Part shown: positions 845 through 22,062 of the stretch, piece by piece
Layout: each line of letters begins with the position of its first letter
Position numbering within the stretch: the stretch's first letter is position 1
Origin: Candidatus Saccharimonadota bacterium
Lineage (GTDB): Bacteria > Patescibacteriota > Saccharimonadia > Saccharimonadales > UBA10212
Assembly: GCA_016187175.1 (NCBI GenBank)
Contig: JACPKG010000002.1
Location: 12,922 to 76,921 of the forward strand
Reading direction: 5' to 3'
DNA: 64,000 bases
The notes under the pieces: generated by a model
The model's database searches: none
Told to the model about the DNA's origin: nothing
What the model saw: only the letters and a program-made list of their open reading frames with translations
Position numbers and translations under genes: made by a program

Positions 845-3037
845 ATGGAGCGTTATAGTAAGACAAAACTAGCCATAAAAATGGGACTGGTTGCCTTACC
901 AATGGCCTTGGTGGGGATTTTAGTTTCTACGTTAGCAGTTTCTACTTATAAAGACTATAAGCCAGGCAGGATAGTATCGGCCGTAACTCAAAACGGCCTA
1001 ACGGCTATACTTGGCGAGTCAACCGACTATATGTCGCCTGGAATGTCTTATCCTTCGACTTGCCCGGCGCCATATACTGGCACACCGCCAAACTGCCAAG
1101 CTCCGGCTAGTTACACTTATCCGACAGATGGAACAGGTGGTAGTTCAACTACTACACAGCCACCGACCCAAACTTATACATCACCGACTTCAGGCACTTC
1201 CGGATCAACCACTCCAACTTCCGGATCAACCACCACCAACCCTCCCAGTTATTCTTATCCGTCATCGGGGTCGGGTAGCATATCCCAGCCAGCAGCCGGC
1301 AGCCCAACCACCAGTCCACCGACTACTAGTAGCGGTGAATCCGAAGCTTGTTGTCGGGCTCCAGGTGATCCAATCCAGGGATCAACAGGGTCAACGGGGT
1401 CGCAATCAAGTGGTTCAAATCAGGGTCAAAGCAGCGGCCAATACGTTCCACCACCTCCGACCTATAGTCGAAGTGACTCTGGAAGTTGCATGGAGAATAT
1501 GCTTGGCGCCGAAGCCTATGCCAAATTCCGCTCTGGTGGTTTCCAGCCCACCGCCGACCAAATCGCCAGAGCCTCTAGCTGCTTTAGCGCGCAGGTCAGT
1601 TATGGCTCTTCGTCTGGAAGTGGCCAAAGCGGTGGCGGGTCTGGCGGCCAGTCCAACAGCGGGCCTTCTGCACAATCAGGTTCCAGCCAGCAACCGGCCT
1701 ATGCTTCAATTGCCATAGCTCCCCCGCCGGCTTTCCAAGCCGATTCACCAATGGTCGCCTGCGCGAAGTCCATAGTGGGCGATCGTTACGGCAGCCAGCC
1801 ATCAGCCGAACAAATGGATCAGATTCGGTCTAAATGTTTTAACCAAGCCTCATCCGGACACCAAATTGGCTACATAGACCCTAGTGGTCAAGGTGGCAGA
1901 GACGGTTCTCTGCCGGGCGTTGCAATTAGCAGCGTAGGTCCTGGCGATAAAGCCGGCTCGCCTCCGTCCCTGCCGCCAGAAGTTAAAGCCTGTGTGATAA
2001 AAGCCGGCATGAGTGAGTCTACTATTGCCGCCATCCAGCGCGGCCAATCGCCGACCGCCGCGCAGCAGCAACAGGGCGAAAGCTGCTTTAACCAGTACGC
2101 TAAAGATAAGGGCTACACACCACCCATGCTGACGCCGCCCGATCCTACACAACCGTTTGACCCCAGCTCTAAACAGAACCAATGTGCCGATTTGGTAGCC
2201 CAAACCCACGGCATTAGGGTTAACCAGATAAACCCGGGCATTGTAGCAACTTGGAGCGCTGATGATATCAGTAAAATGCGATCGTGCTATGGCGTTTCAC
2301 CAACGACTTCGGCTGGTAATAATACAATGGCCTTTGCGCCGACTAGCCCCCAGGTTGCCGTAGCTAGCTCTAAGCTCAGCTGTATAGAACAAGCGGTCGG
2401 AGCCGATAAACTGGCTGCAGTGGTAGCCGGTACGGCGTCCATTAACGATAGCGATCGCCGAACAGTGTACGACAAGTGCATTAACCCGACCAAGATTGCC
2501 GCTAATGCCGATCCAGCCCTGCTGGGCATTCTGGCTGCCATGCCGCCATCGGATCTGGAAGGCCAGTTTATTCCTGTCGATGCACAAATCTTACCGGCGC
2601 CGACAGCCGCTGGTACTAGCCAAACTTCGGCTGACGCTGAAGTAGCTATCGGCGGTGAAGTTAATGTAGCCGCCGGTACGACTCTGCCGACAAAGATAGA
2701 CGTGTTTGTTAAATCTACCCCGCAAACCTTTACTGTTTCTCTGAAGAAAATTACTGCCACAAAAGCCACTTGGACAATCAACGTCGGCCAAAACAAACTG
2801 CCGCTTGGTAATCACAAGGCTTACGCTGTTGCGACTTTAGCCGATGCTACACAGACGCGCAGTCCAGATGCCAGCTTTGACATTACCGCCGCTAAAGCCA
2901 CAAAGAATAACGTTACGATAATTGTGGCTGCCGCCGCGGGCGCAGTAGCTCTTGTTTTGGGCGCCTGGATGGGCTGGCGTTGGCATCACAAACAACCTTT
3001 GCTGTCTTTTAGGCTTCCTTGGAGAAAACACGGCTAA
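845..3037 (+). CDS. large secreted/cell-surface protein, Ser/Thr/Pro/Gly-rich low-complexity, with N-terminal signal/TM and C-terminal TM anchor
   Basis: 730 aa. The N-terminus has a hydrophobic LVALPMALVGILVSTLAV segment, long PT/SG-rich tracts follow, and the C-terminus has IIVAAAAGAVALVLGAWMGW plus a basic tail. Confidence 0.6.
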   Translation: MERYSKTKLAIKMGLVALPMALVGILVSTLAVSTYKDYKPGRIVSAVTQNGLTAILGESTDYMSPGMSYPSTCPAPYTGTPPNCQAPASYTYPTDGTGGSSTTTQPPTQTYTSPTSGTSGSTTPTSGSTTTNPPSYSYPSSGSGSISQPAAGSPTTSPPTTSSGESEACCRAPGDPIQGSTGSTGSQSSGSNQGQSSGQYVPPPPTYSRSDSGSCMENMLGAEAYAKFRSGGFQPTADQIARASSCFSAQVSYGSSSGSGQSGGGSGGQSNSGPSAQSGSSQQPAYASIAIAPPPAFQADSPMVACAKSIVGDRYGSQPSAEQMDQIRSKCFNQASSGHQIGYIDPSGQGGRDGSLPGVAISSVGPGDKAGSPPSLPPEVKACVIKAGMSESTIAAIQRGQSPTAAQQQQGESCFNQYAKDKGYTPPMLTPPDPTQPFDPSSKQNQCADLVAQTHGIRVNQINPGIVATWSADDISKMRSCYGVSPTTSAGNNTMAFAPTSPQVAVASSKLSCIEQAVGADKLAAVVAGTASINDSDRRTVYDKCINPTKIAANADPALLGILAAMPPSDLEGQFIPVDAQILPAPTAAGTSQTSADAEVAIGGEVNVAAGTTLPTKIDVFVKSTPQTFTVSLKKITATKATWTINVGQNKLPLGNHKAYAVATLADATQTRSPDASFDITAAKATKNNVTIIVAAAAGAVALVLGAWMGWRWHHKQPLLSFRLPWRKHG

Positions 3038-4964: not shown

Positions 4965-5765
4965 ATGAAACTACTTGACGGCAAGGAACTGGCTGGGTTT
5001 ATTAAGGAGCGGCAGGCTAAGGATGTCCGCCGGCTTAAGGCATCCAAAATTTTTCCGAAGCTGGCTATTGTCCAGGTCAAAGACGATCCGGTTATTAACA
5101 CCTACGTACGACTGAAAAAGAAATACGGGGCTGATATTGGTATTGGAGTAGAGCTGCATGCCCCAGAGCAAAAGGACGTGCCAAAATTACTTAACAGGTT
5201 AAGTAATGACAAGTCGGTGCATGGTATCATTGTCCAGCTGCCTCTGTCAGATCCTTCTCAGACTGACGAAATAGTCAACATGGTTGCGCCCGAAAAAGAC
5301 GTTGACGCCCTAGGCAAAAACGCCAGATTTGAGCCAGCAACACCAATGGCTATTCTATGGTTGTTGCACGGGTACAACATCGAACTAGCAGACAAGCACA
5401 TTTTACTCATCGGTCGCGGGAAATTAGTTGGCGCGCCACTGGAAAAAATTCTCAAAAGCTCCGGCTATAGTATTGAAGTTATTGACCGCGACGTTAAAAA
5501 TTTAGCCGAACATACCAAAAGAGCGGATATTATTATTACGGCCACCGGCAGCCCGGCCATTCTCTATCCGGCCATGATTAAGCGAGGGGCAGTGGTGGTT
5601 GACGCCGGCGTCGCTAGCGAAGAAGGTAAAACCGTTGGCGACCTGTCGCCGGAAGTGTATAAGCGTGACGATTTAACCGTGACGCCAGAAAAAGGTGGCG
5701 TCGGTCCGTTAACCGTCTGCGCCTTGTTTGAAAACGTCATCCGGGCCGCTAAAAGTGAGTGCTAA
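4965..5765 (+). CDS. folD: bifunctional methylenetetrahydrofolate dehydrogenase/cyclohydrolase
   Basis: 266 aa. The GKELAG...RLKKKYG...HGIIVQLPL...VGDLSPEV...GVGPLTV blocks are typical of FolD. Confidence 0.9.
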   Translation: MKLLDGKELAGFIKERQAKDVRRLKASKIFPKLAIVQVKDDPVINTYVRLKKKYGADIGIGVELHAPEQKDVPKLLNRLSNDKSVHGIIVQLPLSDPSQTDEIVNMVAPEKDVDALGKNARFEPATPMAILWLLHGYNIELADKHILLIGRGKLVGAPLEKILKSSGYSIEVIDRDVKNLAEHTKRADIIITATGSPAILYPAMIKRGAVVVDAGVASEEGKTVGDLSPEVYKRDDLTVTPEKGGVGPLTVCALFENVIRAAKSEC

Positions 5766-7127
5766 CACAGCTGTCTTGAACTGATCGCCGCGATCTTTGT
5801 AATCCTTGAACAACCCAAAACTGGAGCAGCCGGTAGAAAGAAGCACTACGTCGCCCGGTTTGGCCGAGGCGCGAGCGGCGCTAGCAATTTCTGGCATGGT
5901 TTTTAAGCCTAAAGTTACGTTTTTGTAGCCTTTGGCTGCTAGCATTTTAGCAATTTTTTCGCCGGTATAACCGATGGCTATTACTTGTCTGACTCGGCTT
6001 TTTACCACCTCGTCTACTAAGGGGTCAAAAGGCAGGCCCTTATCGTGGCCGCCCAGTATTATCACTTTTGGTTCAATGAAGGCCCGCATGGCCACGATGG
6101 CGGTTTGGGGGGTAGTCCCAAAGGAGTCGTCATAGTATTTGACACTGTCTAATTCCCGCACGAATTCCAGGCGGTGTTCCAGACCACTAAAGCTTGTTAA
6201 AACTTGACGGATCGCTTGGATTTTAGCCTGCAGTTGCACTTCAGGAACTGTAAACCAAACAGTGGTCACAGCGGCACAGACGTTTTCAAGGTTATGCTCG
6301 CCCAGAAGCTTTACGTCCCTGGTTTTTATAACTTCTATTTCCGGGTCGCCAACCACTATAATCCCCTCGTCTTTAGCGACGGCGCCCGGCTTGGCAAAGT
6401 AGGGGATCTTGACTCCGGGCGAGGCCCCAGCTATACGTTTGGATTGTTCGTTTTTAGCAAAATAAATGGCGATGTCATCAGTTTTTTGGTAGGCGAACAG
6501 ATTGGTTTTGGCCGCAATATACTCTTCTGTATTAGAGTGCCAATCTTGGTGTTCGTCGGTAATCATTAAGCTGACGGCAATATGGGGGCTATAGGGAAAT
6601 TTATAAAGCTGAAAGTTAGTTATCTCAAGCACCACCCAATCATCCTCCTGGACATCTCCCAGGACATCTAGAACGCTGGTGCCAATGTTGCCAGCTAGAT
6701 AGGCATTTTTACCAACGGCCTTTAACATCTCAAATATTAGGGTCGAGGTAGTACCCTTACCTTTAGTGCCGGTAATACCAACGAGGTTTTTAGTCTTTAC
6801 CCCTTGGAAGAAAATGTGCCAAACAGTTGTCGCCTTCTGCCAAAAGTCTTTATCCTGCCCAAATTTTTGCTCCAAGTTCTTTACAGAGGTGACAGAATAG
6901 ATAATCTTATCACAGTCTTCGATGCCGTTCAGATAGCTCAGGTCCGCGACGTTGCCAGTTACTCCTGGCGGCTTTTCCGCTTTCAGAAATTGGACCTTGA
7001 TTCTTTCCGATTCGGCAGGCAAGTCGTCCCTGGGGTGCTCGTTCACTATAAGATATTCGTGCTCCGGCCCAAAGTAGCGGTAGGCGCTTTGGCCCTCTAT
7101 ACCCCAACCAACAATCCCTATCCTCAT
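5709..7127 (-). CDS. murD: UDP-N-acetylmuramoylalanine--D-glutamate ligase
   Basis: 472 aa. It starts MRIGIVGWGIEGQSAY and has the Mur ligase P-loop GITGTKGKGTTS and a C-terminal Mur-ligase domain. Its 3' end overlaps the folD 3' end by about 57 nt, in convergent orientation. Confidence 0.85.
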   Translation of the reverse strand: MRIGIVGWGIEGQSAYRYFGPEHEYLIVNEHPRDDLPAESERIKVQFLKAEKPPGVTGNVADLSYLNGIEDCDKIIYSVTSVKNLEQKFGQDKDFWQKATTVWHIFFQGVKTKNLVGITGTKGKGTTSTLIFEMLKAVGKNAYLAGNIGTSVLDVLGDVQEDDWVVLEITNFQLYKFPYSPHIAVSLMITDEHQDWHSNTEEYIAAKTNLFAYQKTDDIAIYFAKNEQSKRIAGASPGVKIPYFAKPGAVAKDEGIIVVGDPEIEVIKTRDVKLLGEHNLENVCAAVTTVWFTVPEVQLQAKIQAIRQVLTSFSGLEHRLEFVRELDSVKYYDDSFGTTPQTAIVAMRAFIEPKVIILGGHDKGLPFDPLVDEVVKSRVRQVIAIGYTGEKIAKMLAAKGYKNVTLGLKTMPEIASAARASAKPGDVVLLSTGCSSFGLFKDYKDRGDQFKTAVLALTFSGPDDVFKQGADG

Positions 7128-7152
7128 CCCTTAATCATACCCCGATTTATTC

Positions 7153-7175
7153 TGTGATAGGTTAGACCTATCACA
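7153..7175. repeat. REP-like palindrome, family 1 (TGTGATAGGTTAGACCTATCACA), outer copy on the left side of the tnpA gene
   Basis: A perfect 10-bp arm hairpin was read directly from the sequence. Confidence 0.8.
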
Positions 7176-7232
7176 ACTACCACAAGCCTACCACGGGCTG
7201 TCGAGGGTTAAAGTTTTGGCCAGAAGCAACTC

Positions 7233-7255
7233 TGTGATAGGTTAGACCTATCACA
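7233..7255. repeat. REP-like palindrome, family 1, second left copy abutting/overlapping the tnpA start codon
   Basis: The sequence is identical to the 7153-7175 copy. Confidence 0.8.
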
Positions 7256-7878
7256 TGCCAAGCAGGAATATAGTTCGGGAGTTCGTTTCTGATAGCTATT
7301 ATCATATTTATAATCGTGGAGTAGAGAAACGAGTAATCTTTACTGATGAGCAAGATTACACGGTTTTCTTAGGTCTATTGAAGAAGTATCTGTCTGGTGA
7401 ACCGCCAGGCAAAGAAAACAGGCATCTTTTTAAGAGTTTTCAGGGCGAGCTCTCTCTTTTGGCTTATTGCTTAATGCCCAGCCATTTCCACCTACTTTTT
7501 TATCAATCATCAGAAAAAGCATTTGCGGAATTGATGTGTCGATTGTGCACTGGTTACGTTATGTACTTCAATAACCGGCACCATAGAATAGGCGGTCTCT
7601 TCCAGGGGCCATATCGGGCTTCTCGCATTGATGAAGATGGATATTTACATCACATATCAAGATATATACACCTGAACCCAGAAGATTATAAAAATTGGCC
7701 ATACTCAAGCCACTCAGTTTACACAGGAGTAAAAAAGACAGTGTGGGTAAACACAGAACTGATTTTGGGCTTATTTAACAATGACCCAAAAGAGTATCAG
7801 GAGTTTTTAGATGATTACGTAGACAGCAAAGCCGAGCTGGCGATTCTCAAACATCAGCTAGCTAATGACTTAGAGTGA
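7255..7878 (+). CDS. tnpA: IS200/IS605-family HUH (Y1) transposase, likely a REP-associated tyrosine transposase (RAYT-like)
   Basis: 207 aa. It has the HuH motif MPSHFHLLF and the catalytic-Tyr region YLHHISRYIHLNP. It is flanked by cognate palindromes on both sides. Confidence 0.8.
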   Translation: MPSRNIVREFVSDSYYHIYNRGVEKRVIFTDEQDYTVFLGLLKKYLSGEPPGKENRHLFKSFQGELSLLAYCLMPSHFHLLFYQSSEKAFAELMCRLCTGYVMYFNNRHHRIGGLFQGPYRASRIDEDGYLHHISRYIHLNPEDYKNWPYSSHSVYTGVKKTVWVNTELILGLFNNDPKEYQEFLDDYVDSKAELAILKHQLANDLE

Positions 7879-7885
7879 TCTTTTT

Positions 7886-7930
7886 GTGATAGTAGTTGTG
7901 ATAGGTCTAACCTATCACAACTACTATCAC
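7886..7930. repeat. compound nested palindrome (GTGATAGTAGTT-[TGTGATAGGTCTAACCTATCACA]-AACTACTATCAC) on the right side of tnpA
   Basis: The inner copy (7897-7919) is the family-1 REP in the opposite orientation to the two left copies (centre GGTCTAACC versus GGTTAGACC). Confidence 0.8.
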
Positions 7931-7977
7931 ACTCACACGGCTCTCCGTAAAAGGCTTGTGTTTATTTAAATTGAGGG

Positions 7978-8005
7978 TTGACGGGCTGGGCAAACGTAGT
8001 ATAAT
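7978..8005 (+). promoter_or_regulatory. sigma70-like promoter TTGACG-N16-TATAAT upstream of the 8029 ORF
   Basis: Both hexamers are visible in the sequence. Confidence 0.45.
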
Positions 8006-8028
8006 CTGCTTTTGGTTAAGGAAAAAAT

Positions 8029-8376
8029 ATGACTTTTGAAAAATCAGGATATCTTTCCCCGACCTCGCAGGGCCATGAAGCTCCACGGAGGGATCTACTG
8101 GATATTGAATTATTCCCAAGTGCCGTACCCATTGAAGACGTTAAGCCCGTCGGAGAGATGCATGTCAACGAAAGTTCCAGCGGGTTTAGATTTAACGAAT
8201 TAGAACAAGCTCAGGTTGATGGCAGCGAATTGCATGCAGACCACGACGCTCTAGTAAGATTGGGCGGTATGTGGGCTGTACGTGCAACTAGCGCCCAAGG
8301 TATGCCTCCTGAGGCTAGAGCCTTTTATCAAGGTATTTTCGATTTTGCTCAGCCTGGTGAAAAAAGAAAAAAGTAA
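8029..8376 (+). CDS. hypothetical protein (115 aa, acidic)
   Basis: An intact ORF follows a good promoter, with an AAGGAAAAAAT purine-rich stretch before the ATG. No family was recognised. Confidence 0.45.
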   Translation: MTFEKSGYLSPTSQGHEAPRRDLLDIELFPSAVPIEDVKPVGEMHVNESSSGFRFNELEQAQVDGSELHADHDALVRLGGMWAVRATSAQGMPPEARAFYQGIFDFAQPGEKRKK

Positions 8377-8598
8377 GCTTAAACCCGATCCTAAGCATTA
8401 GCTTGTTGATAGTATTGCCAATATTGCAACCTTGTGATAAAATATACCCACTCTCGCCATCTGGCGCGTTAGTGAGGTGGACAAGACGCAATCTTGACAA
8501 TTCAGAAGTTTGCGAACAATTTAGAAAATGGTCAAAATTAAACTAAATTGAGAGGCAAACTAGATAGTTATGGGGTTTTAATTGAAGCGATTAGCCAT

Positions 8599-8618
8599 TA
8601 GCTAATAGCTATTAGCTA
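8599..8618. promoter_or_regulatory. perfect 20-bp AT-rich palindrome TAGCTAATAGCTATTAGCTA just inside the left IR, upstream of the cargo gene
   Basis: The sequence is its own reverse complement. It could be an operator. Confidence 0.3.
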
Positions 8619-8806
8619 TCTGCTCTTAATTCCCATAACCGACTACTTAATTTGTTTTTGATCTGTCCTTTTGGGCAAGGCACCAAGGTGATACATGTCT
8701 TTGTATTGTACTGTCGCTTTGGTGTCTTGCCCAACCCTCAAGGGTAAGGGCAGACCCGGTGATTGCGCACGCTGGTCTCCTGAACCACGACCACCGGGAG
8801 GTGATC

Positions 8807-10531
8807 ATGAGTACCTTGCGCAAGACCACGACCGCCTTTCTGGTGGTCGTGGGGCTCGCCGCCGCCATCGCGCCCTCGGGCGCATCGGCGGCGAGCGACG
8901 CAGACCGCCGCCCGCGGCTCAACCGCGTTGTCGAGCACGGAGCGAACTCCGTGGCCGACATCCGCCGAGCCGCGGCGCAGTACCCGCAGTATCGAGAGAT
9001 GCTGCAGAACGAGCTGGACATGGATGGCTGGGACCCGTCCATGCTGCAGCTCGGCCCCGTCGTCAACATCGGCGACGGGGAGCAGATCGTGAACCAGGGG
9101 GTCGCCCCTGGGACACGGCAGCTTGTCGCCTACCCCGACCGCGGACGCGGTTACACGTACCGAAAGGTCGTGAACCGCGCCAACGGGAAGTTCGTGATCG
9201 TCAAGATCAGGTGTGGGAACCTGATCAAGACGTTCCGGGTTCCCGCGGAGCGGGTGAAGATCATCACCCGCTACCGTACGATCTACAAGATCAAGTACAT
9301 CAACCGGGCCGCGGAGATCGTTCCGCGCGGATCCGAGGCGCAAGCCAAGGCCACCGCCGGTGCGGTCGCCACGAATAACATCGACATCAACAACCGGCCG
9401 AAGGTCACCGTCACGGTGAAGCCGAAGATCACGGTCAAGCCGACCGTGAGCGTGACGGTGAAGGTGCCGGGGCAGAAGACCGCCCCGGCAAAGCCCAAGC
9501 CGGCGCCAACCCCGGCCGTGAAGTACGGCCGGTTGACGATCACCAAGGCCACTCCCGGTGTGGCCCGCGCCTGTTTCCGTTTCCACCTCTGGGTGGTCAA
9601 GAGCGGCAGGTGGGCGCGCTCGACCGACTTCTCGCTCTGCACCGGGCAGAGCAAGAGTTACAGCCTCCGGACGTCGACCAACGTCGGCGTGACGGAGAAC
9701 GCTGCCCGCGGGTGGAGTCCCGCAGCAGCGTGCGTTCGGAAGATCGTAGCGGCCGGGGTCCGCTGCGACTTCGTCAACCGGAAGGTCGCGGTGGCCCCGG
9801 GGGAGTTCACCGCGACCGTATCTAAGAAGGTCGTGAACTCGGCCATGACGGCCGATTTCACGACCTTCTACAATTTGTTCCGCCTGCCCGTGGCGGTGTG
9901 GATCAACGGGCAGGCGGCGTATACGGTGCTGGTTCCCATGGACGGGAACCGGTACGCGGTTTCGAAGGACGGCATCTCCCCGTTCGTGTTCAAGAAGGGG
10001 GACGCCGTGAAGTTATGCGAGGACCTCGGGTTCGCCCGAGGTCTCGTGCTCGAACCCGTCGCGCCGGTGGCGGCCGACGGGTGCCTGGTTGCGCAGAAGG
10101 GAGGGCCTGGCCTAGAGGTCTTTTCCTTCATCAACCGGGCAGTGGAGGGGGTGAGGCCCCAACCCCCGCCCCCGGCGGTTCAGCCACCGCCGGCGGCGCC
10201 TCCCACGGCGCCGCCGGTGACGCCTCCGACCCCGGCGCCGAAGACCGGGGCTCCGGGTCCCGGCACAACTACGCCGGGACAAGCAGGTGGCCCGGGAGCC
10301 GTCGGTTCGCCCGCCGCGGGCTCCGGCCCGACGTGCCGGGACGCCTCCGGGAACGTTGTTCCCGGGACCACCGGCGCCTCGGGGAACTGCCCGGGAGCGG
10401 TCCCCCCGACGACGGGGGCGCCCGGGCCGGCGGCGGGATCACCCCCCCCGCCCCCGACGGGGAACTGCCTAGACCCGGCAACGGGCCAGTCCCGGGCCGG
10501 GGCGAAAGATCAGTTCGGCTACTGCGTCTGA
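8807..10531 (+). CDS. secreted protein of unknown function with a signal peptide, Lys-rich KPKITVKPTVSVTVKVPGQK repeats, a Cys-containing central domain, and a C-terminal Pro-rich linker plus Cys-containing tail; high-GC codon usage
   Basis: The start was chosen at MSTLRK, 6 nt after GGGAGG. The signal peptide reads TTAFLVVVGLAAAIAPSGASAAS. The gene is 574 aa. Confidence 0.6.
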   Translation: MSTLRKTTTAFLVVVGLAAAIAPSGASAASDADRRPRLNRVVEHGANSVADIRRAAAQYPQYREMLQNELDMDGWDPSMLQLGPVVNIGDGEQIVNQGVAPGTRQLVAYPDRGRGYTYRKVVNRANGKFVIVKIRCGNLIKTFRVPAERVKIITRYRTIYKIKYINRAAEIVPRGSEAQAKATAGAVATNNIDINNRPKVTVTVKPKITVKPTVSVTVKVPGQKTAPAKPKPAPTPAVKYGRLTITKATPGVARACFRFHLWVVKSGRWARSTDFSLCTGQSKSYSLRTSTNVGVTENAARGWSPAAACVRKIVAAGVRCDFVNRKVAVAPGEFTATVSKKVVNSAMTADFTTFYNLFRLPVAVWINGQAAYTVLVPMDGNRYAVSKDGISPFVFKKGDAVKLCEDLGFARGLVLEPVAPVAADGCLVAQKGGPGLEVFSFINRAVEGVRPQPPPPAVQPPPAAPPTAPPVTPPTPAPKTGAPGPGTTTPGQAGGPGAVGSPAAGSGPTCRDASGNVVPGTTGASGNCPGAVPPTTGAPGPAAGSPPPPPTGNCLDPATGQSRAGAKDQFGYCV

Positions 10532-10547
10532 CGCAGTAGCCGAACTG
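10511..10547. terminator. 37-bp palindrome (16-bp arms CAGTTCGGCTACTGCG / CGCAGTAGCCGAACTG) centred on the TGA stop of the cargo gene
   Basis: The arms are a perfect inverted repeat. It may be a terminator or a recombination site; there is no U-tract. Confidence 0.4.
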
Positions 10548-10683
10548 GTAACCCGTCCGTGTGATACCGTGCGGGCGGGTGGGACTAACGGCTAACGGTA
10601 TAGGTAGTCGGGTGGGGCGAGGTTTCGTTCGATGAGATGGTCGCCTCGGCGACTGCAGAACTCTTGAGCAGAGACTCGCCCCA

Positions 10684-10719
10684 CCCCGACGCCGTAGAGC
10701 AAAAGCTCCGGCGTCGGGG
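10684..10719 (+). terminator. GC-rich stem-loop CCCCGACGCCG-N14-CGGCGTCGGGG in the 3' region of the high-GC insert
   Basis: The stem is a perfect 11 bp. Confidence 0.3.
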
Positions 10720-10931
10720 TCACATACCCTCATTTGTTACTCCTCGGGAAGAGCAGCCCGAGCGTCGGATTTACTCCGCGCCCGGCGCGATGGGAAACCC
10801 CGAAGGGGTGTCCTATAAGGCGAAGCCGTTTTAAAGCCCAATAACTATCTAGTTTGCGAAAGCCTTAACAGATTTGTTCTGGCTAATCGTTAAAATTTAA
10901 CTAAATTCGATTTTAAGAAAGGAATTAAATA

Positions 10932-11777
10932 ATGCGTATGAAACTAGCTTTAACAAGCTTGCTTAGCGCGGTCGCAATAGTGGTTATGCCCGGCATTGCG
11001 TTAGCCGGATTTGCGCCGGCTGACCGCGCGACCCTCCAGTGTATTAGCCCAACCAACTGCCCGGGTGCCAGCTACGTGACTTTTAACTCGTTTACCAACG
11101 CTCCTAACTACGGAGACGAAAGGGCCTTTTTTGACGCCAAAGACGCTTCGATTACAAGTCCAGGCGGCTTCCAAGATAAGCTGACCGTAACCCACGGTCA
11201 GAGGATCTTTATGCGCGTCTATGTGCATAACAATGCCAACGAGTCTGCCATTGGTCAGGCGGCCGCTACGGCTAAAAATACTCGCATCCAGGCACTCCTG
11301 GAAACCAATAAGAAAACCAGCCACGTGGCGTCTGCTGCCATCACCGCAGACAACGCTAATCCGGCCACAGTTAGCGACACGGTCGAGCTGACTGGCGCCA
11401 ACCCGTTCACCATGGTGTTTGATAGAAACGCGCCGGTTAATGTTACCTACCGGCCTAACGGCACCGGCGATTGGGTGACCCGACCACTGCCTGGTGCTAC
11501 CTTCGCTAATGACCAGACAATCAACGCCAATGTTGGCGATTGGAGAGGCTGCTTCGAGTTCGGAGCACTAATCACCTTCACAGCCATTGTTAGTATGGAT
11601 GTACCAAAAATAGAAGTACCGCCACAAATCCCGCCTACACCAACTCCTCCTTCCGCTGGAAAACCGGGCGCACTGCCGGTAACTGGTGGTGCTGGTAGCG
11701 TTTTGGGCGTGTTTACGGGCGTAAGTGCTGCTGCCGGCGCTGTCCACTATTTGTGGGGCCGCCGGTTCGGCCAATAA
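10932..11777 (+). CDS. LPXTG-motif cell-wall-anchored surface protein
   Basis: 281 aa with a signal peptide MRMKLALTSLLSAVAIVVMPGIALA. The C-terminus has LPVTGG, a hydrophobic segment and an RRFGQ tail, which is a sortase substrate pattern. Confidence 0.65.
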   Translation: MRMKLALTSLLSAVAIVVMPGIALAGFAPADRATLQCISPTNCPGASYVTFNSFTNAPNYGDERAFFDAKDASITSPGGFQDKLTVTHGQRIFMRVYVHNNANESAIGQAAATAKNTRIQALLETNKKTSHVASAAITADNANPATVSDTVELTGANPFTMVFDRNAPVNVTYRPNGTGDWVTRPLPGATFANDQTINANVGDWRGCFEFGALITFTAIVSMDVPKIEVPPQIPPTPTPPSAGKPGALPVTGGAGSVLGVFTGVSAAAGAVHYLWGRRFGQ

Positions 11778-11831
11778 CCCGCCGAAATTTCAAAGAAATT
11801 TTTGCGGGCGAAGACAAAAATAACTTTGCAG

Positions 11832-20911: not shown

Positions 20912-20931
20912 ATACTTGACTAGTCAAGTAT
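20912..20931. promoter_or_regulatory. perfect 20-bp palindrome ATACTTGACTAGTCAAGTAT overlapping a TTGACT -35-like hexamer upstream of marR; candidate MarR operator
   Basis: It is its own reverse complement. A second copy lies at 55794-55817. Confidence 0.45.
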
Positions 20932-20951
20932 CTGTGCCGTATGCTTACGGC

Positions 20952-21386
20952 ATGAAAACAATAAAAAAACGGGGGACTTACACCCCTCTCACTTCCCTGC
21001 ACCGCTTGGAGTTTATTTTACAACATAAATCAGATTCGCTACTGCGCGATTCTTTAGGGGTAGGTTTTGGCCAAGTGCAAATAATGCAAGCCCTGCACCG
21101 CTCGGTCCCACTCACCCAACGCGCTGTGGCCGTTAAGCTGCATCAAACAGAGGCCAATGTCAGCCGTCAGCTCCAGCTTCTTAAGAAAAAGGGACTAGTT
21201 AATATCACCCGTAATAAAAAAGATAAGCGTCTGCGCGAAACTTCTCTAACCGCTAAAGGTCAGCAAACATTTGCAAAAGCCGAGAAAATTCTATCTGCCC
21301 AGCACAAAGAACTGCTGAAAATGGTAGATGACCGCGACGTTAAAGCCCTAGACCGCGCCGTCTCCCACCTATTAAAAGCCCTTTAG
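20952..21386 (+). CDS. MarR-family transcriptional regulator
   Basis: 144 aa from MKTIKK. The winged-HTH region reads LTQRAVAVKLHQTEANVSRQLQLLKKKGLVNITRNKKDKRLRETSLTAKG. The ORF track's upstream TTG start lies inside the palindrome and is unlikely. Confidence 0.65.
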   Translation: MKTIKKRGTYTPLTSLHRLEFILQHKSDSLLRDSLGVGFGQVQIMQALHRSVPLTQRAVAVKLHQTEANVSRQLQLLKKKGLVNITRNKKDKRLRETSLTAKGQQTFAKAEKILSAQHKELLKMVDDRDVKALDRAVSHLLKAL

Positions 21387-21646: not shown

Positions 21647-22062
21647 GGGGCTGATTTTAGCTCGACGGTGTTCTTTTACAAGCTAATTCGCAGGTCGGAG
21701 TGCACTGAACGTTATCCGGTGCAAACAAATTAAATGCAATAGCATTTTTATCTGGCGGTGCATTACTTGCATTCGCCAAAAAGCGATTCGTCAACCCTTT
21801 CCGGGGTTTGGCCTTCGCACCAGCTTACGTCTAAACTCGTAAGCCGCGCTTGGTTCGACATCAGATAGAACTATCGGCGTGTCATATCATCTGGTTGCTC
21901 GAGGCTTACTTTCCATAAGACTCGTTAAGATTTCGGAATAGGGAATGCGGCTTTTTGGCCGTTTATCGGTCGCGTTTCCAAAAAATTTCAAATGGCCTAA
22001 ACCTGTAGAAGACTAGCTAAGTACAACATCGGACCCGGTTGCAATCACCGGCAGCTCCACCA
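21647..22062 (+). ncRNA. ssrA: tmRNA (ssrA)
   Basis: The 5' end GGGGCTGATTTTAGCTCGACGG matches E. coli GGGGCUGAUUCUGGAUUCGACGG. The 3' end GGACCCGGTTGCAATCACCGGCAGCTCCACCA matches GGACGCGGGUUCAACUCCCGCCAGCUCCACCA. A GCA-initiated tag ORF region lies in the interior. Confidence 0.8.

Follow-up and report, generated by a model that had tools for sequence, protein, structure and literature searches.

The helices that join leader and trailer in bacterial rRNA transcripts are 25-40 bp long, have a boxC in the leader strand that hardly varies, covary by Watson-Crick/wobble interchange only, and are thought to be closed by an antitermination complex anchored at boxA (PMC10250234). boxA also acts beyond rRNA, in protein genes (suhB and others) and in CRISPR arrays, the setting there being long RNA that is untranslated or poorly translated and otherwise exposed to Rho (PMC5725501, PMC7665894). 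In Bacillus subtilis, the 5' and 3' UTRs of the hbs mRNA pair with each other and thereby govern its stability and its exposure to nucleases (PMC5737220), and in Lactobacillus a strong promoter and a structured 5' UTR give the slpA gene a long-lived message and an abundant surface protein (PMC10221546). Here we describe a repeat-bracketed gene, found in a 64,000-nt stretch of DNA (the window) from a Candidatus Saccharimonadota bacterium, that resembles each of these systems in part. It is most likely a fixed chromosomal expression unit of Saccharimonadales (TM7/CPR) rather than a mobile element.

Like the rRNA operons (rrnTAC), the unit has a strong promoter, a boxA-like motif tens of nucleotides upstream of the leader strand, a helix made from sequences that flank the product (25-40 bp around a product of 1.5-3 kb), a leader strand that is almost invariant and varies by Watson-Crick/wobble interchange, and G+C-rich, highly structured RNA between the helix strands. 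Unlike them, it encloses a translated mRNA with a Shine-Dalgarno (SD) sequence and a signal-peptide ORF, and has a second covarying helix that ends beside the stop codon; dependence on Nus factors and cleavage by RNase III are putative in the unit. As in suhB and the CRISPR arrays, a transcript other than rRNA carries a boxA-like element in its untranslated leader; in those cases we know of neither a leader-trailer helix nor a downstream gene recoded in composition, and the suhB boxA represses expression rather than boosting it. As in hbs and in icaR of Staphylococcus aureus, another mRNA with 5'/3'-UTR pairing, base pairing joins the two UTRs of one message, but those pairings are short and species-specific, whereas here two helices (27 bp and 9-12 bp) are kept across many species of an order, alongside a leader with a boxA-like motif and a coding sequence rich in structure. 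The strong promoter and structured 5' UTR recall S-layer genes, although the abundance of the unit's product is presumed, and the hypervariable coding sequence and recombination between conserved flanks recall S-layer cassettes, such as that of Clostridioides difficile with its cassette-like allelic replacement. The predicted fold of the enclosed (cargo) protein is pilin/CnaB-like, unlike S-layer proteins, and we know of no report of a comparable G+C shift or 3' pairing in an S-layer gene. The dif modules of Acinetobacter plasmids and MITE-derived cassettes likewise hold cargo bounded by inverted repeats and lack a transposase. The unit resembles them in its single cargo gene, its inverted repeats of about 27 bp and the lack of a recombinase inside, but differs in its fixed chromosomal site and orientation, its single copy per genome, its RNA-level conservation signals and a site architecture that misfits Xer.

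The G+C content of 300-nt windows rises from 0.38-0.47 (7100-8750) to 0.62-0.77 (8750-10700) and falls back to 0.46-0.47 (10700 onward), and outside the block no 1-kb bin of the 64-kb window exceeds 0.58, which bears out the compositional jump reported in an earlier, sequence-only reading. Its further structural claims were recovered too: terminal inverted repeats (here called arms, 27 nt and 93% complementary), a single 574-aa secreted-protein ORF with a signal peptide and a strong SD, a perfect 20-nt AT palindrome, a palindrome at the stop codon (two perfect 18-nt arms) and, in the G+C-rich tail, hairpins with perfect stems of 12 nt and 15 nt (Table 1). The arm 20-mer has two sites in the whole window, both of them the arms, against a chance expectation of 0.01. 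The claim that no transposase is present holds within the block, but an IS200-like Y1_Tnp gene (7255-7878) lies 680 nt upstream. No rRNA occurs in the 64-kb window, and the unit is separate from the rRNA operon.

Table 1. Features of the unit and its surroundings in the window.
Feature	Position	Strand	Remarks
Promoter	8415-8443	+	TTGCCA, 17-nt spacer, TG-extended TAAAAT; scan score 10/12 with TG extension
5'-proximal leader hairpin(s)	8450-8489	+	contains SD-like GAGGTGG
boxA-like motif TCTTGACAATT	8492-8502 (feature 8492-8515)	+	followed by GTTTGCG at a boxC-like position
Arm 5' GCAAACTAGATAGTTATGGGGTTTTAA	8555-8581	+	leader strand of long-range helix
Variable hairpin after arm 5'	8582-8639	+	holds perfect 20-nt AT palindrome TAGCTAATAGCTATTAGCTA (8599-8618)
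Element a (AACCGACTACTT)	8637-8648	+	5' strand of second long-range helix
G+C-rich leader hairpin and SD	8663-8806	+	hairpin arms 8671-8691 / 8714-8734
Shine-Dalgarno GGGAGGTG	8796-8803	+	upstream of cargo ORF
Cargo gene	8807-10531	+	574-aa secreted protein with signal peptide; GC3 0.86; RNA heavily base-paired
Stop-codon hairpin	10511-10547	+	perfect 18 bp (10511-10528 / 10530-10547); 5' strand encodes C-terminal DQFGYCV
Element a' (AGGTAGTCGGG)	10601-10611	+	3' strand of second long-range helix
3' UTR hairpin array	10610-10830	+	stems 10610-10621/10675-10686, 10683-10697/10706-10720, plus others
Arm 3' TTAAAGCCCAATAACTATCTAGTTTGC	10831-10857	+	trailer strand of long-range helix
Spacer to next gene	10858-10931	+	partial repeat of leader upstream of arm 5' (GCCTTAACAGATTTGTT; AATCGTTAAAATTTAACTAAATT)
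Downstream gene	10932-11777	+	281-aa secreted protein: LPVTGG, hydrophobic segment, basic tail (sortase-type anchor)

A 19-base arm pattern retrieved relatives from 14 genome records and 40 metagenome contigs. Of these other assemblies, 38 have one signal-peptide ORF enclosed by two convergent arms at a distance of 1.4-2.3 kb; nearly all the related loci are from records labelled Saccharimonadales or Saccharibacteria, in agreement with the earlier guess of a CPR epibiont. Each genome record, including two complete chromosomes, has one locus, and in all 22 loci with flank markers it lies between FolD/MurD and Pgk/Tpi with the ORF directed towards Pgk. The order of parts is likewise conserved: promoter, boxA-like motif, arm 5', strand of the second helix, SD and ORF, 3' hairpins, arm 3'. 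The sequence-only reading had taken the arms for MITE-like ends, and a non-autonomous transposon with a passenger gene, or else an assembly chimera, would account for 27-nt terminal inverted repeats, a sharp compositional boundary and the nearby Y1 gene. Such an origin is barely credible, as there is a single copy per genome at a constant syntenic site and orientation, no target-site duplication was found around the arms in the window sequence, and Y1_Tnp neighbours the unit in just two lineages, that of the window and L003. Chimerism is contradicted by two Logan assemblies from separate read sets that span both junctions (SRR12113420, covering 5626-11433 of the window, and SRR12113385, covering 6229-11806), each with a single internal difference from the window, at 7531.

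The variation of the arms points to RNA. Over 27 positions in 34 loci, opposed bases form 807 Watson-Crick pairs, 50 G·U, 11 A·C and 50 other combinations, 26 of the last at position 18, where G opposite A is commonest. Since differences are G·U-compatible 50 times against 11 for A·C, it is the sense RNA that pairs; positions 1, 22 and 25, which the search pattern does not cover, hold many of the G·U pairs. The core of arm 5' is almost invariant across the 34 loci, conservation at positions 2-17 and 19-21 being partly ascertainment because the pattern fixed one arm per locus. Within the arms lies a second helix, between the conserved CCGACTAC of element a, at a median of 42 nt downstream of arm 5', and the conserved GTAGTCGG of element a', at a median of 15 nt past the stop codon in 33 loci (73 nt in the window). 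Both sides of this helix change in 8 of 14 pairs, and its covariation score of 0.145 was reached by none of 500 shuffles (slid controls, 0.04-0.07). In minimum-energy folds of 5' UTR, linker and 3' UTR, the arms pair in 33 of 33 loci and a:a' in 32 of 33. The transcript is most likely closed by a long RNA helix whose two strands are the 'terminal inverted repeats', and these RNA-level features tell further against MITE-like ends.

The arm core is also near-palindromic (AACTA-GA-TAGTT) and conserved in sequence beyond pairing, so that it could be a protein-binding DNA site; in one clade an arm-like ACTAAATAGTTATGC lies just upstream of the -35 box, where a role in RNA is impossible. It is unlikely that the arms are crossover sites for a recombinase encoded elsewhere (a serine invertase or resolvase, or Xer), which would permit inversion or exchange of the gene cassette and make the RNA complementarity a by-product. 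The dyad symmetry about a 2-bp centre is like that of hix/gix-type sites, the 16-nt core hardly varies, near-identical strains swap whole coding sequences, and the block has cargo but no recombinase, as dif modules do. Against this, the half-sites are 2 bp apart rather than the 6-8 bp of tyrosine-recombinase/Xer sites, all 22 loci with flank markers share one orientation, the recognised neighbours of the unit are housekeeping genes, with no recombinase gene noticed among them, and exchange breakpoints fall in the UTR scaffold, at places that depend on the strain pair, not at the arms. Neither the 50:11 asymmetry of G·U to A·C nor the covarying second helix would be expected of DNA sites. We think it quite improbable that the arms are operators through which a dimeric transcription factor loops or insulates the locus for on/off control of a surface protein. 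The palindromic core in each arm, the third site by the -35 box and the conservation beyond complementarity would suit operators, but neither arm is at the promoter, the first being about 110 nt downstream and the second about 2 kb beyond that, the third site is limited to one clade, and no conserved regulator gene adjoining the unit was seen in the flank-marker comparison. RNA is again indicated by the G·U bias, by covariation in the a:a' helix and by the asymmetry of the 27-nt extension.

The leader resembles that of an rRNA operon. The window promoter aligns with a near-invariant TTGACA-N17-TGnTAGAGT of 21 related loci, and would place the transcription start near 8450. The 5'-proximal hairpin matches a conserved CCTCGC..GCGAnGAGGTGG stem-loop at the transcript start of related loci and may serve as a stabiliser; the whole 5' UTR of the window folds with z = -6.3. 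In 31 of 34 non-redundant loci, against 8.6% of shuffles, the 150 nt upstream of arm 5' contain a boxA-like [CT]TT[AGT]A[ACG]AA, at 14-89 nt from the arm (consensus over loci, CTTAACAATT) and followed by a conserved GTTTG. The motif resembles the boxA consensus GYTCTTTAANA (PMC5725501). The match is to the core alone (CTTAACAA vs CTTTAACA; window, CTTGACAA), and the consensus is gammaproteobacterial; we regard the window motif as a candidate NusB/E-binding boxA. After arm 5', other loci have hairpins that differ in sequence and length, or none, and in the window the end of the variable hairpin, CCCATAAC (8632-8639), can pair locally with GTTATGGG of the arm. L003 has a hairpin of different sequence in place of the G+C-rich leader hairpin, GGAGGTG precedes the start codon in most loci, and the 3' UTRs of related loci hold at least one G+C-rich hairpin, unrelated in sequence and without U-tracts.

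The coding sequence is set apart in composition and in folding. Its GC3 of 0.86 compares with 0.38-0.58 in the other window ORFs of at least 120 aa, and in 23 of 24 loci the cargo has a higher GC3 than any flanking gene (mean difference from the highest, +0.25); throughout the lineage, high G+C marks this single locus. Every G- or C-ending codon is raised, with G3 = C3 = 0.43, and GC1 and GC2 are raised too. The equality of G3 and C3 and the raised GC1 and GC2 fit biased gene conversion or foreign origin equally with selection. The folding energy of the window coding sequence is -1025 kcal/mol, whereas synonymous-codon shuffles of it reach -864 +/- 15 (z = -11); z is -4.2 to -13 in eight of eight cargo genes and -1.1 to +0.3 in five other window genes used as controls. 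We find it improbable that the high G+C and the structure arose incidentally, through GC-biased gene conversion at a recombination hotspot, with the architecture unchanged and no selection on RNA. Alleles are indeed mosaic and replaced by recombination, and the symmetric rise of G- and C-ending codons, with GC1 and GC2, would be as predicted, but gene conversion raises G+C without arranging bases into helices, and shuffles that keep G+C and codon usage forfeit 45-160 kcal/mol. Moreover, in three of four loci the sense strand gains roughly twice as much stability over its shuffles as the antisense strand does; in the window locus the two gains are equal, so that coding-sequence structure there does not tell one strand from the other. 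We infer that the G+C content is due to selection for RNA structure and not to biased gene conversion.

The cargo protein has no Pfam family and no LPXTG signal, and ends in a Pro-rich tail with a C-terminal Cys loop (..DQFGYCV). Residues 216-455 are predicted to form two pilin/CnaB-like beta-sandwich domains (AlphaFold2, pLDDT 75.5), with Foldseek matches to Gram-positive pilins and Cna B repeats (E from 2.5e-6), and there is a weak match to DUF5979. The cargo is plausibly a host-attachment adhesin of an epibiont, a designation that, with neither LPXTG nor Pfam family, rests on the predicted fold of 240 of 574 residues. An exhaustive, profile-free HMMER search of 1.84 billion representative proteins gave seven relatives at E <= 0.001, namely the cargo itself and P0002-P0007. 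P0002 is the L003 cargo, P0003, P0004 and P0007 match the cargos of other loci better than that of the window, P0006 matches both the window and L003 cargos, and P0005 had no match at E <= 1e-5 in BLASTP against all cargos. A word-indexed search of 5.8 billion proteins gave two matches, and no donor lineage was found in these protein searches. Cargo proteins form a mosaic family, with domains common to cargos of different lineages, and near-identical strains whose flanks are 96-100% identical have coding sequences only 66-68% identical, with breakpoints inside the UTR scaffold that vary between strain pairs. The cargo, as judged from these comparisons, evolves by domain shuffling and by recombinational replacement of whole alleles between strains.

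The sequence-only reading had proposed recent acquisition from a high-G+C, perhaps actinobacterial, donor. Repeated capture of cargos from such donors into a dedicated slot, the G+C being the donor's, would fit a codon usage like that of a genome of about 68% G+C (G3 = C3, raised GC1 and GC2) and pilin/CnaB-like folds and a DUF5979 match typical of Gram-positive surface proteins. Actinobacteria are the presumed hosts of Saccharibacteria, and would supply a source. We nevertheless hold this to be rather far-fetched, given the handful of relatives among billions of proteins, the domains shared between lineages, and a G+C excess that follows the composition of the host genome (flanks with a GC3 of about 0.4 go with a cargo GC3 of about 0.5). 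The non-coding UTR hairpins are likewise G+C-rich, and donor composition does not explain an excess of RNA structure that depends on arrangement. Close homologues of similar G+C lie within the same lineage, which by the terms of the sequence-only reading itself refutes horizontal transfer and a MITE. What endures of the earlier interpretation is the compositional anomaly, the CPR assignment and an exchangeable cassette (flanks 96-99% identical between strains with divergent coding sequences), while the MITE-like ends and the recent high-G+C donor do not.

We consider it rather probable that the unit makes an rRNA-like, self-protecting mRNA for a hypervariable adhesin, with a leader-trailer helix and a boxA-type leader. 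The transcript would begin at the near-consensus promoter, and the leader would supply the 5' stem-loop and the boxA-like element, with the 27-nt arm 5' emerging about 50 nt beyond the latter. Once the gene had been transcribed through both arms, arm 3' would join arm 5' in a leader-trailer helix, as around 16S and 23S rRNA, and the covarying CCGACTAC:GTAGTCGG helix, its second strand just past the stop codon, would tighten the loop. The unit would then be an mRNA in 'rRNA mode', with boxA-type antitermination by Nus factors, ends locked in a duplex that RNase III probably trims, and a body that its own folding protects, its coding sequence having been recoded to high G+C and base-paired far beyond the needs of protein sequence and codon usage. 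If so, the message should be very stable and abundant.

The spacer's partial repeat of the leader was absent, by eye, from L007, L041 and L049, and is peculiar to this genome. No terminator-like site follows arm 3' in the scanned region (8300-11000), and the downstream gene is probably co-transcribed with the cargo, to judge from this arrangement. Homologues of the downstream gene occupy the same place in L007, L011, L026, L035 and L041.

The block of raised G+C at 8555-10857 is a real feature of this genome. In 300-nt windows, G+C is 0.38-0.47 upstream, 0.62-0.77 from 8750 to 10700, and 0.46-0.47 from 10700 onwards, and no 1-kb bin elsewhere in the 64-kb window exceeds 0.58. The block is bounded by inverted repeats of 27 nt with 93% complementarity (arm 5′ and arm 3′), whose 20-mer is limited to the two arms within the 64 kb (chance expectation, 0.01 matches), and it encloses a single gene, here called the cargo, which encodes a protein with a signal peptide and is preceded by GGGAGGTG. 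The GC3 of the cargo is 0.86, as atypical as for a foreign island, compared with 0.38-0.58 in all other called window ORFs of at least 120 aa, and all of its G- and C-ending codons are elevated (G3 = C3 = 0.43). Two Logan assemblies, built from other read sets (SRR12113420 and SRR12113385), span window positions 5626-11433 and 6229-11806, and each differs from the window at a single internal base, position 7531; both junctions are therefore real, and an assembly chimera is rejected. What a sequence-only reading of the window had observed was thus confirmed, including the AT palindrome, the hairpin of 18 bp centred on the stop codon and the hairpins of the tail. The difference at position 7531 falls inside a Y1_Tnp gene, where gene calling on L001 gives only a 45-aa product.

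The same reading had taken the repeats for MITE-like ends around a cargo gene. A word-indexed protein search returned the identical protein and one relative, P0002, and nothing further. The contig that encodes P0002 (L003) is laid out like the window, with a Y1_Tnp neighbour, an inverted repeat (CAAACTAGATAGTTAT...), a G+C-rich secreted-protein gene and, downstream of it, another secreted-protein gene. Related loci were then sought with the arm pattern CAAACTAGATAGTTATNGGG, and the scan identified 14 genome records, nearly all labelled Saccharimonadales or Saccharibacteria, as well as 40 metagenome contigs, with one locus per genome record, two complete chromosomes (OZ246413.1 and OY970151.1) among them. 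Convergent arm pairs lie 1.4-2.3 kb apart in 38 loci, most of the remainder being cut by contig ends; every pair encloses one signal-peptide ORF, usually preceded by GGAGGTG, and has a higher G+C inside than in the flanks (38/38). Wherever the flanks are recognisable, the unit lies between FolD/MurD and Pgk/Tpi with its ORF pointing towards Pgk (22/22 loci), and this constancy of site and orientation rules out a transposing element and leaves an inversion switch unsupported.

The terminal repeats would suit a MITE or other transposon, but such an element should be found in several copies at unrelated sites, and only the two arms in the 64 kb and one locus per genome record were found; there is also no target-site duplication, as the bases outside the arms, ..TTGAGAG before arm 5′ and GAAAGCC.. 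after arm 3′, show no direct duplication. The direct repeat pair D4 (23 nt of similarity), 5 and 28 nt from the arms, is specific to the window. An invertible segment of the Hin/Gin type should occur in both orientations, but the inverted orientation was not seen in any of the 22 assemblies with flank markers, and no recombinase is encoded in the segment, which holds one ORF, or among its recognised neighbours (MurD, FolD, Pgk, Tpi and LPXTG proteins, with the Y1_Tnp gene in two lineages). Xer/dif sites are 28 bp long, with two 11-bp arms flanking a 6-bp centre; the half-sites here, AACTA/TAGTT, are 2 bp apart, and direct reading rejects both a Xer/dif module and an integron attC, the architecture of which is unlike that of the arms. 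We conclude that the unit is almost certainly a fixed, conserved locus rather than an insertion. The Y1_Tnp gene of the window is IS200-like (PF01797, E = 2e-6) and has a long hairpin directly after it, which Rfam picked up through spurious miRNA-like matches; in L003, too, this gene (76% aa identity) adjoins the unit on the left, but the other loci lack it there. The unit and its syntenic neighbours were also found in MAGs labelled Binatia (L011, DATKKU010000032.1) and Babeliales (L013, DATIIZ010000024.1), contigs that are probably mis-binned.

With the loci oriented alike, the non-coding parts of the unit align, and their order is listed in the table. The stop codon falls inside element a′ in two loci. 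No Rfam match was found in the region of the unit, in the whole window or in 15 related loci. The spacer past arm 3′ directly repeats parts of the leader that precedes arm 5′, namely a second boxA-like motif (GCCTTAACAGATTTGTT) and a 23-nt stretch (AATCGTTAAAATTTAACTAAATT, 20/23 matches), in this genome only; it could be left over from a duplication, or act as a second antitermination site serving the LPXTG gene.

Features of the unit in their order, and of its surroundings (positions in the window unless a locus is named)
Feature	Position	Remarks
Promoter	8415-8443	TTGCCA-17-TG-TAAAAT in the window; near-invariant TTGACA-N17-TGnTAGAGT across loci
Stem-loop		At the transcript start, after the promoter
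BoxA-like motif		CTTAACAAT, then GTTTG; 31/34 loci vs 8.6% of shuffles
Arm 5′	8555-8581	After the boxA-like motif and GTTTG
Optional hairpin		After arm 5′; variable sequence; contains the AT palindrome in the window
Element a		CCCATAA-CCGACTAC; after the optional hairpin, before the leader hairpin
Leader hairpin		G+C-rich; between element a and the Shine-Dalgarno sequence and ORF
Cargo ORF	8807-10531 (+)	574 aa
Stop-codon-centred hairpin	10511-10547 (with the Cys-loop codons, 10472-10547)	Perfect, 18 bp; last Cys-loop codons form its 5′ strand
Element a′		GTAGTCGG; median 15 nt past the stop codon
3′ hairpins		One or more, G+C-rich, without U-tracts; between a′ and arm 3′
Arm 3′	10831-10857	Followed 40-70 nt on by the Shine-Dalgarno sequence of a conserved LPXTG-type protein gene
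Spacer past arm 3′	10858-10931	Repeats parts of 8488-8554
Ser/Thr/Gly/Pro-rich protein gene	845-3037	730 aa; N-terminal signal/anchor, C-terminal membrane segment
Y1_Tnp gene and hairpin	7255-7939	Hairpin at 7872-7939
Putative smpB ORF	20916-21386	
tmRNA gene	21647-22062	91.9 bits
Upstream G+C-rich block	L003:760-1365(+); L008:1796-2346(-)	About -800 to -250 relative to arm 5′
Arm-like ACTAAATAGTTATGC	L017:5652-5667(-)	Immediately upstream of the cargo -35 box

Comparison of the loci indicates that the arms, and likewise elements a and a′, very probably form long-range helices in the sense RNA. Over 27 positions in 34 non-redundant loci, the arm pairs comprise 807 Watson-Crick, 50 G·U, 11 A·C and 50 other combinations; 96.3% of cells pair, and 26 of the other combinations fall at position 18 alone, mostly G opposite A. 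In a double-stranded DNA site the two kinds of difference, G·U-type and A·C-type, should be equally frequent, so that 50 against 11 speaks for RNA pairing, being about five standard deviations off parity, a figure that carries no formal probability since the loci are related. Positions 1, 22 and 25, left unconstrained by the search pattern, account for many of the G·U pairs. Element a is exactly complementary to a′, and the ends of their helix covary (AU/UA/CG at one pair, CG/UA at another), with both sides changing in 8 of the 14 pairs of the joint alignment. The covariation score of this helix, 0.145, was reached by none of 500 shuffles, and slid registers gave 0.04-0.07. In minimum-energy folds of the 5′ UTR, a linker and the 3′ UTR, the arm helix was formed in 33/33 loci and the a:a′ helix in 32/33; the 5′ UTR of the window folded alone gave z = -6.3.

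The GC3 of the cargo exceeds that of the highest flanking gene in 23 of 24 loci, by 0.25 on average, and partly tracks the genome, being about 0.5 in a clade of 42% G+C and 0.75-0.90 elsewhere. Because foreign origin, biased gene conversion and selection cannot be told apart from composition alone, the synonymous codons of each gene were permuted within the gene, so that protein sequence, codon usage and G+C stayed unchanged. The window cargo folds at -1025 kcal/mol, compared with -864 ± 15 for its shuffles (z = -11), and seven other cargos gave z = -4.2 to -13, whereas five ordinary window genes used as controls (MurD, Pgk, an ATP-synthase-like gene, a 408-aa ORF and the LPXTG neighbour) gave z = -1.1 to +0.3. 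The coding sequence is thus arranged to base-pair, a property that donor composition and biased conversion both leave unexplained. In three of four loci the sense strand has about double the excess stability of the antisense strand; in the window they are equal. Selection for a self-structured message, resistant to nucleases and to Rho, is therefore the main cause of the high G+C that we favour, at about even confidence; recombination-linked bias may contribute. Codon bias linked to high expression is disfavoured, as G- and C-ending codons rise equally, GGG, CCC and CTC included; the glycolytic and ATP-synthase-like genes of the window are at the genome-mean codon composition. In contrast with the cargo, the gene for a Ser/Thr/Gly/Pro-rich protein near the start of the window owes its mildly raised G+C (0.53-0.56) to GC2 (0.59), its GC3 being 0.48.

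The sequence-only reading had also proposed a recent acquisition from a high-G+C donor. An exhaustive HMMER pass over 1.84 billion representatives (E ≤ 0.001) yielded seven proteins, the cargo itself and six relatives, P0002-P0007; no donor lineage is visible. P0002 is the cargo of L003, and P0006 matches both that cargo and the window's. P0003, P0004 and P0007 match the cargos of other loci better than the window protein; P0005 matched none of the cargos in BLASTP at E ≤ 1e-5. Since most of these relatives match cargos, most belong to one mosaic family. A cargo-bearing unit at the same site in 38 assemblies does not show the patchy presence of an acquired gene, and the proposal of a recent acquisition is not upheld.

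The window protein has no Pfam family; among ten other cargos, the only hits were a weak one to DUF5979, below threshold, and a spurious one to YodE. A word-indexed search with the family alignment found no matches, and a search of PDB sequences found only short repeat-like matches to designed beta-propellers, which were disregarded. AlphaFold2 run on the single sequence was unusable (pLDDT 37); with a six-sequence alignment, residues 216-455 were modelled at pLDDT 75.5 as two beta-sandwich domains. The best Foldseek matches of this model in the PDB were the Gram-positive pilins Spy0128, SpaA, PitA and RrgB and the Cna B repeats (probability ~1, E from 2.5e-6), with low global TM-scores (0.25-0.3), as expected when two domains differ in relative orientation. 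The predicted fold is thus that of tandem CnaB/CnaA-type Ig-like domains, and on the strength of the model we tentatively consider the cargo a possible adhesin. The cargo lacks an LPXTG sorting signal and ends in ..AKDQFGYCV; the gene after it encodes LPVTGG, followed by a hydrophobic segment and a basic tail. The window, L026, L041 and L007 cargos, otherwise dissimilar, share a short C-terminal Cys-loop motif, C..D/N..G..VPG..DQFGYC[VT].

Among strains with flanks 96-99% identical, the cargo coding sequences are only 66-68% identical, which we take as about the level of unrelated G+C-rich sequences in a global alignment, and the 5′ and 3′ UTR modules reassort independently among near-identical strains. 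These patterns imply that the gene is swapped between strains as an allele cassette, for which homologous recombination within the conserved scaffold is the simplest route. Silent donor cassettes nearby were rejected as a source of the high G+C, the 64 kb having no second G+C island.

The closest analogue of the unit is the leader-trailer helix of pre-rRNA, which has the same parts in the same order if the boxA-like motif is counted as a boxA. The flanks of 16S rRNA form a helix of 25-40 bp containing an RNase III site; its leader strand holds the almost invariant boxC, where covariation is limited to Watson-Crick/wobble interchange, and boxA lies a short distance upstream of that strand (Warner et al., PMC10250234). 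In the model of these authors, the leader strand stays with the polymerase, held there by the antitermination complex bound to boxA, until the trailer has been made (PMC10250234). Protein genes and CRISPR arrays are also subject to boxA action, and the boxA consensus is said to drift between phyla (PMC5725501, PMC7665894). The motif CTTAACAAT/CTTGACAAT resembles the gammaproteobacterial consensus GYTCTTTAANA (PMC5725501), and we lean slightly towards its functioning as a boxA. By analogy with pre-rRNA, the arm helix might be processed by RNase III, a prediction in which we have less confidence. The unit has the long, product-flanking helix kept by Watson-Crick/wobble interchange, but in contrast with an rRNA operon it encloses an mRNA, with a Shine-Dalgarno sequence, a 574-aa ORF and a signal peptide, and gives no Rfam match; as the product is not rRNA, it works like the rRNA-operon family without being a member. 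Pairing between UTRs has a precedent in Bacillus subtilis hbs, where pairing of the 5′ and 3′ UTRs governs nuclease access (PMC5737220). S-layer genes typically combine strong promoters with stabilising 5′ UTRs (PMC10221546), and of such an expression unit only promoter strength and UTR structure are visible from sequence.

In place of a MITE or a recent horizontal transfer, we read the locus as a conserved unit, organised like an rRNA operon, for the expression of a pilin-like surface protein that is hypervariable. The unit is assembled from known parts; literature searches found no account of a comparable one, and to our knowledge none has been described. We suggest that Saccharimonadales might produce one protein-coding transcript on the rRNA production line: a boxA-modified polymerase would retain the leader strand; once the trailer appears, the 27-bp helix would close and be cut by RNase III, and the message, recoded to high G+C, would fold like rRNA and survive with few ribosomes. 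Taken together, as an rRNA-mimic mRNA for a hypervariable host-attachment adhesin, these steps form a speculative and rather unlikely whole. An rRNA-type unit may have been the ancestor of the 1.4-2.3-kb slot.

Sharp G+C islands with inverted-repeat bounds are routinely scored as mobile or foreign, and here such an island is, on our reading, a conserved, lineage-wide expression device. If the proposed mechanism holds, this would be the first protein gene whose local base composition is explained by selection for the RNA structure of the whole message, tied to a dedicated mode of transcription and processing, and a natural mRNA whose synonymous sites are dominated by folding selection (z = -4 to -13, 8/8 genes). 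Leader-trailer helices and boxA leaders would then not be confined to stable RNAs. The locus would also point to the surface protein that soil Saccharibacteria exchange most rapidly. In these organisms, which are very difficult to grow in culture, that protein would be a candidate determinant of host attachment and host range, and the conserved arms could serve as a PCR or bait handle for surveying cargo diversity in metagenomes.

Further observations concern other structured or arm-like sequences. The tmRNA gene of the window lies just downstream of a putative smpB, an ordinary pairing. About 11 related loci (L003, L007, L008, L009, L010, L016, L019, L023, L039, L042 and L053), though not the window, carry a second G+C-rich block (60-77%; 400-600 nt) that immediately precedes the cargo promoter. 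Its sequence is poorly conserved between loci, contains no coherent ORF and matches neither Rfam families nor, by blastx, any cargo; it folds into successive near-perfect hairpins (z = -7.6 and -6.5), with a terminator-like hairpin at the end in the loci read, and may be a novel structured RNA. Finally, in one low-G+C clade (L017, and likewise L024, L025 and L051), the arm-like ACTAAATAGTTATGC lies in non-transcribed DNA beside the -35 box, the sole hint that the arm sequence may also be read as DNA.
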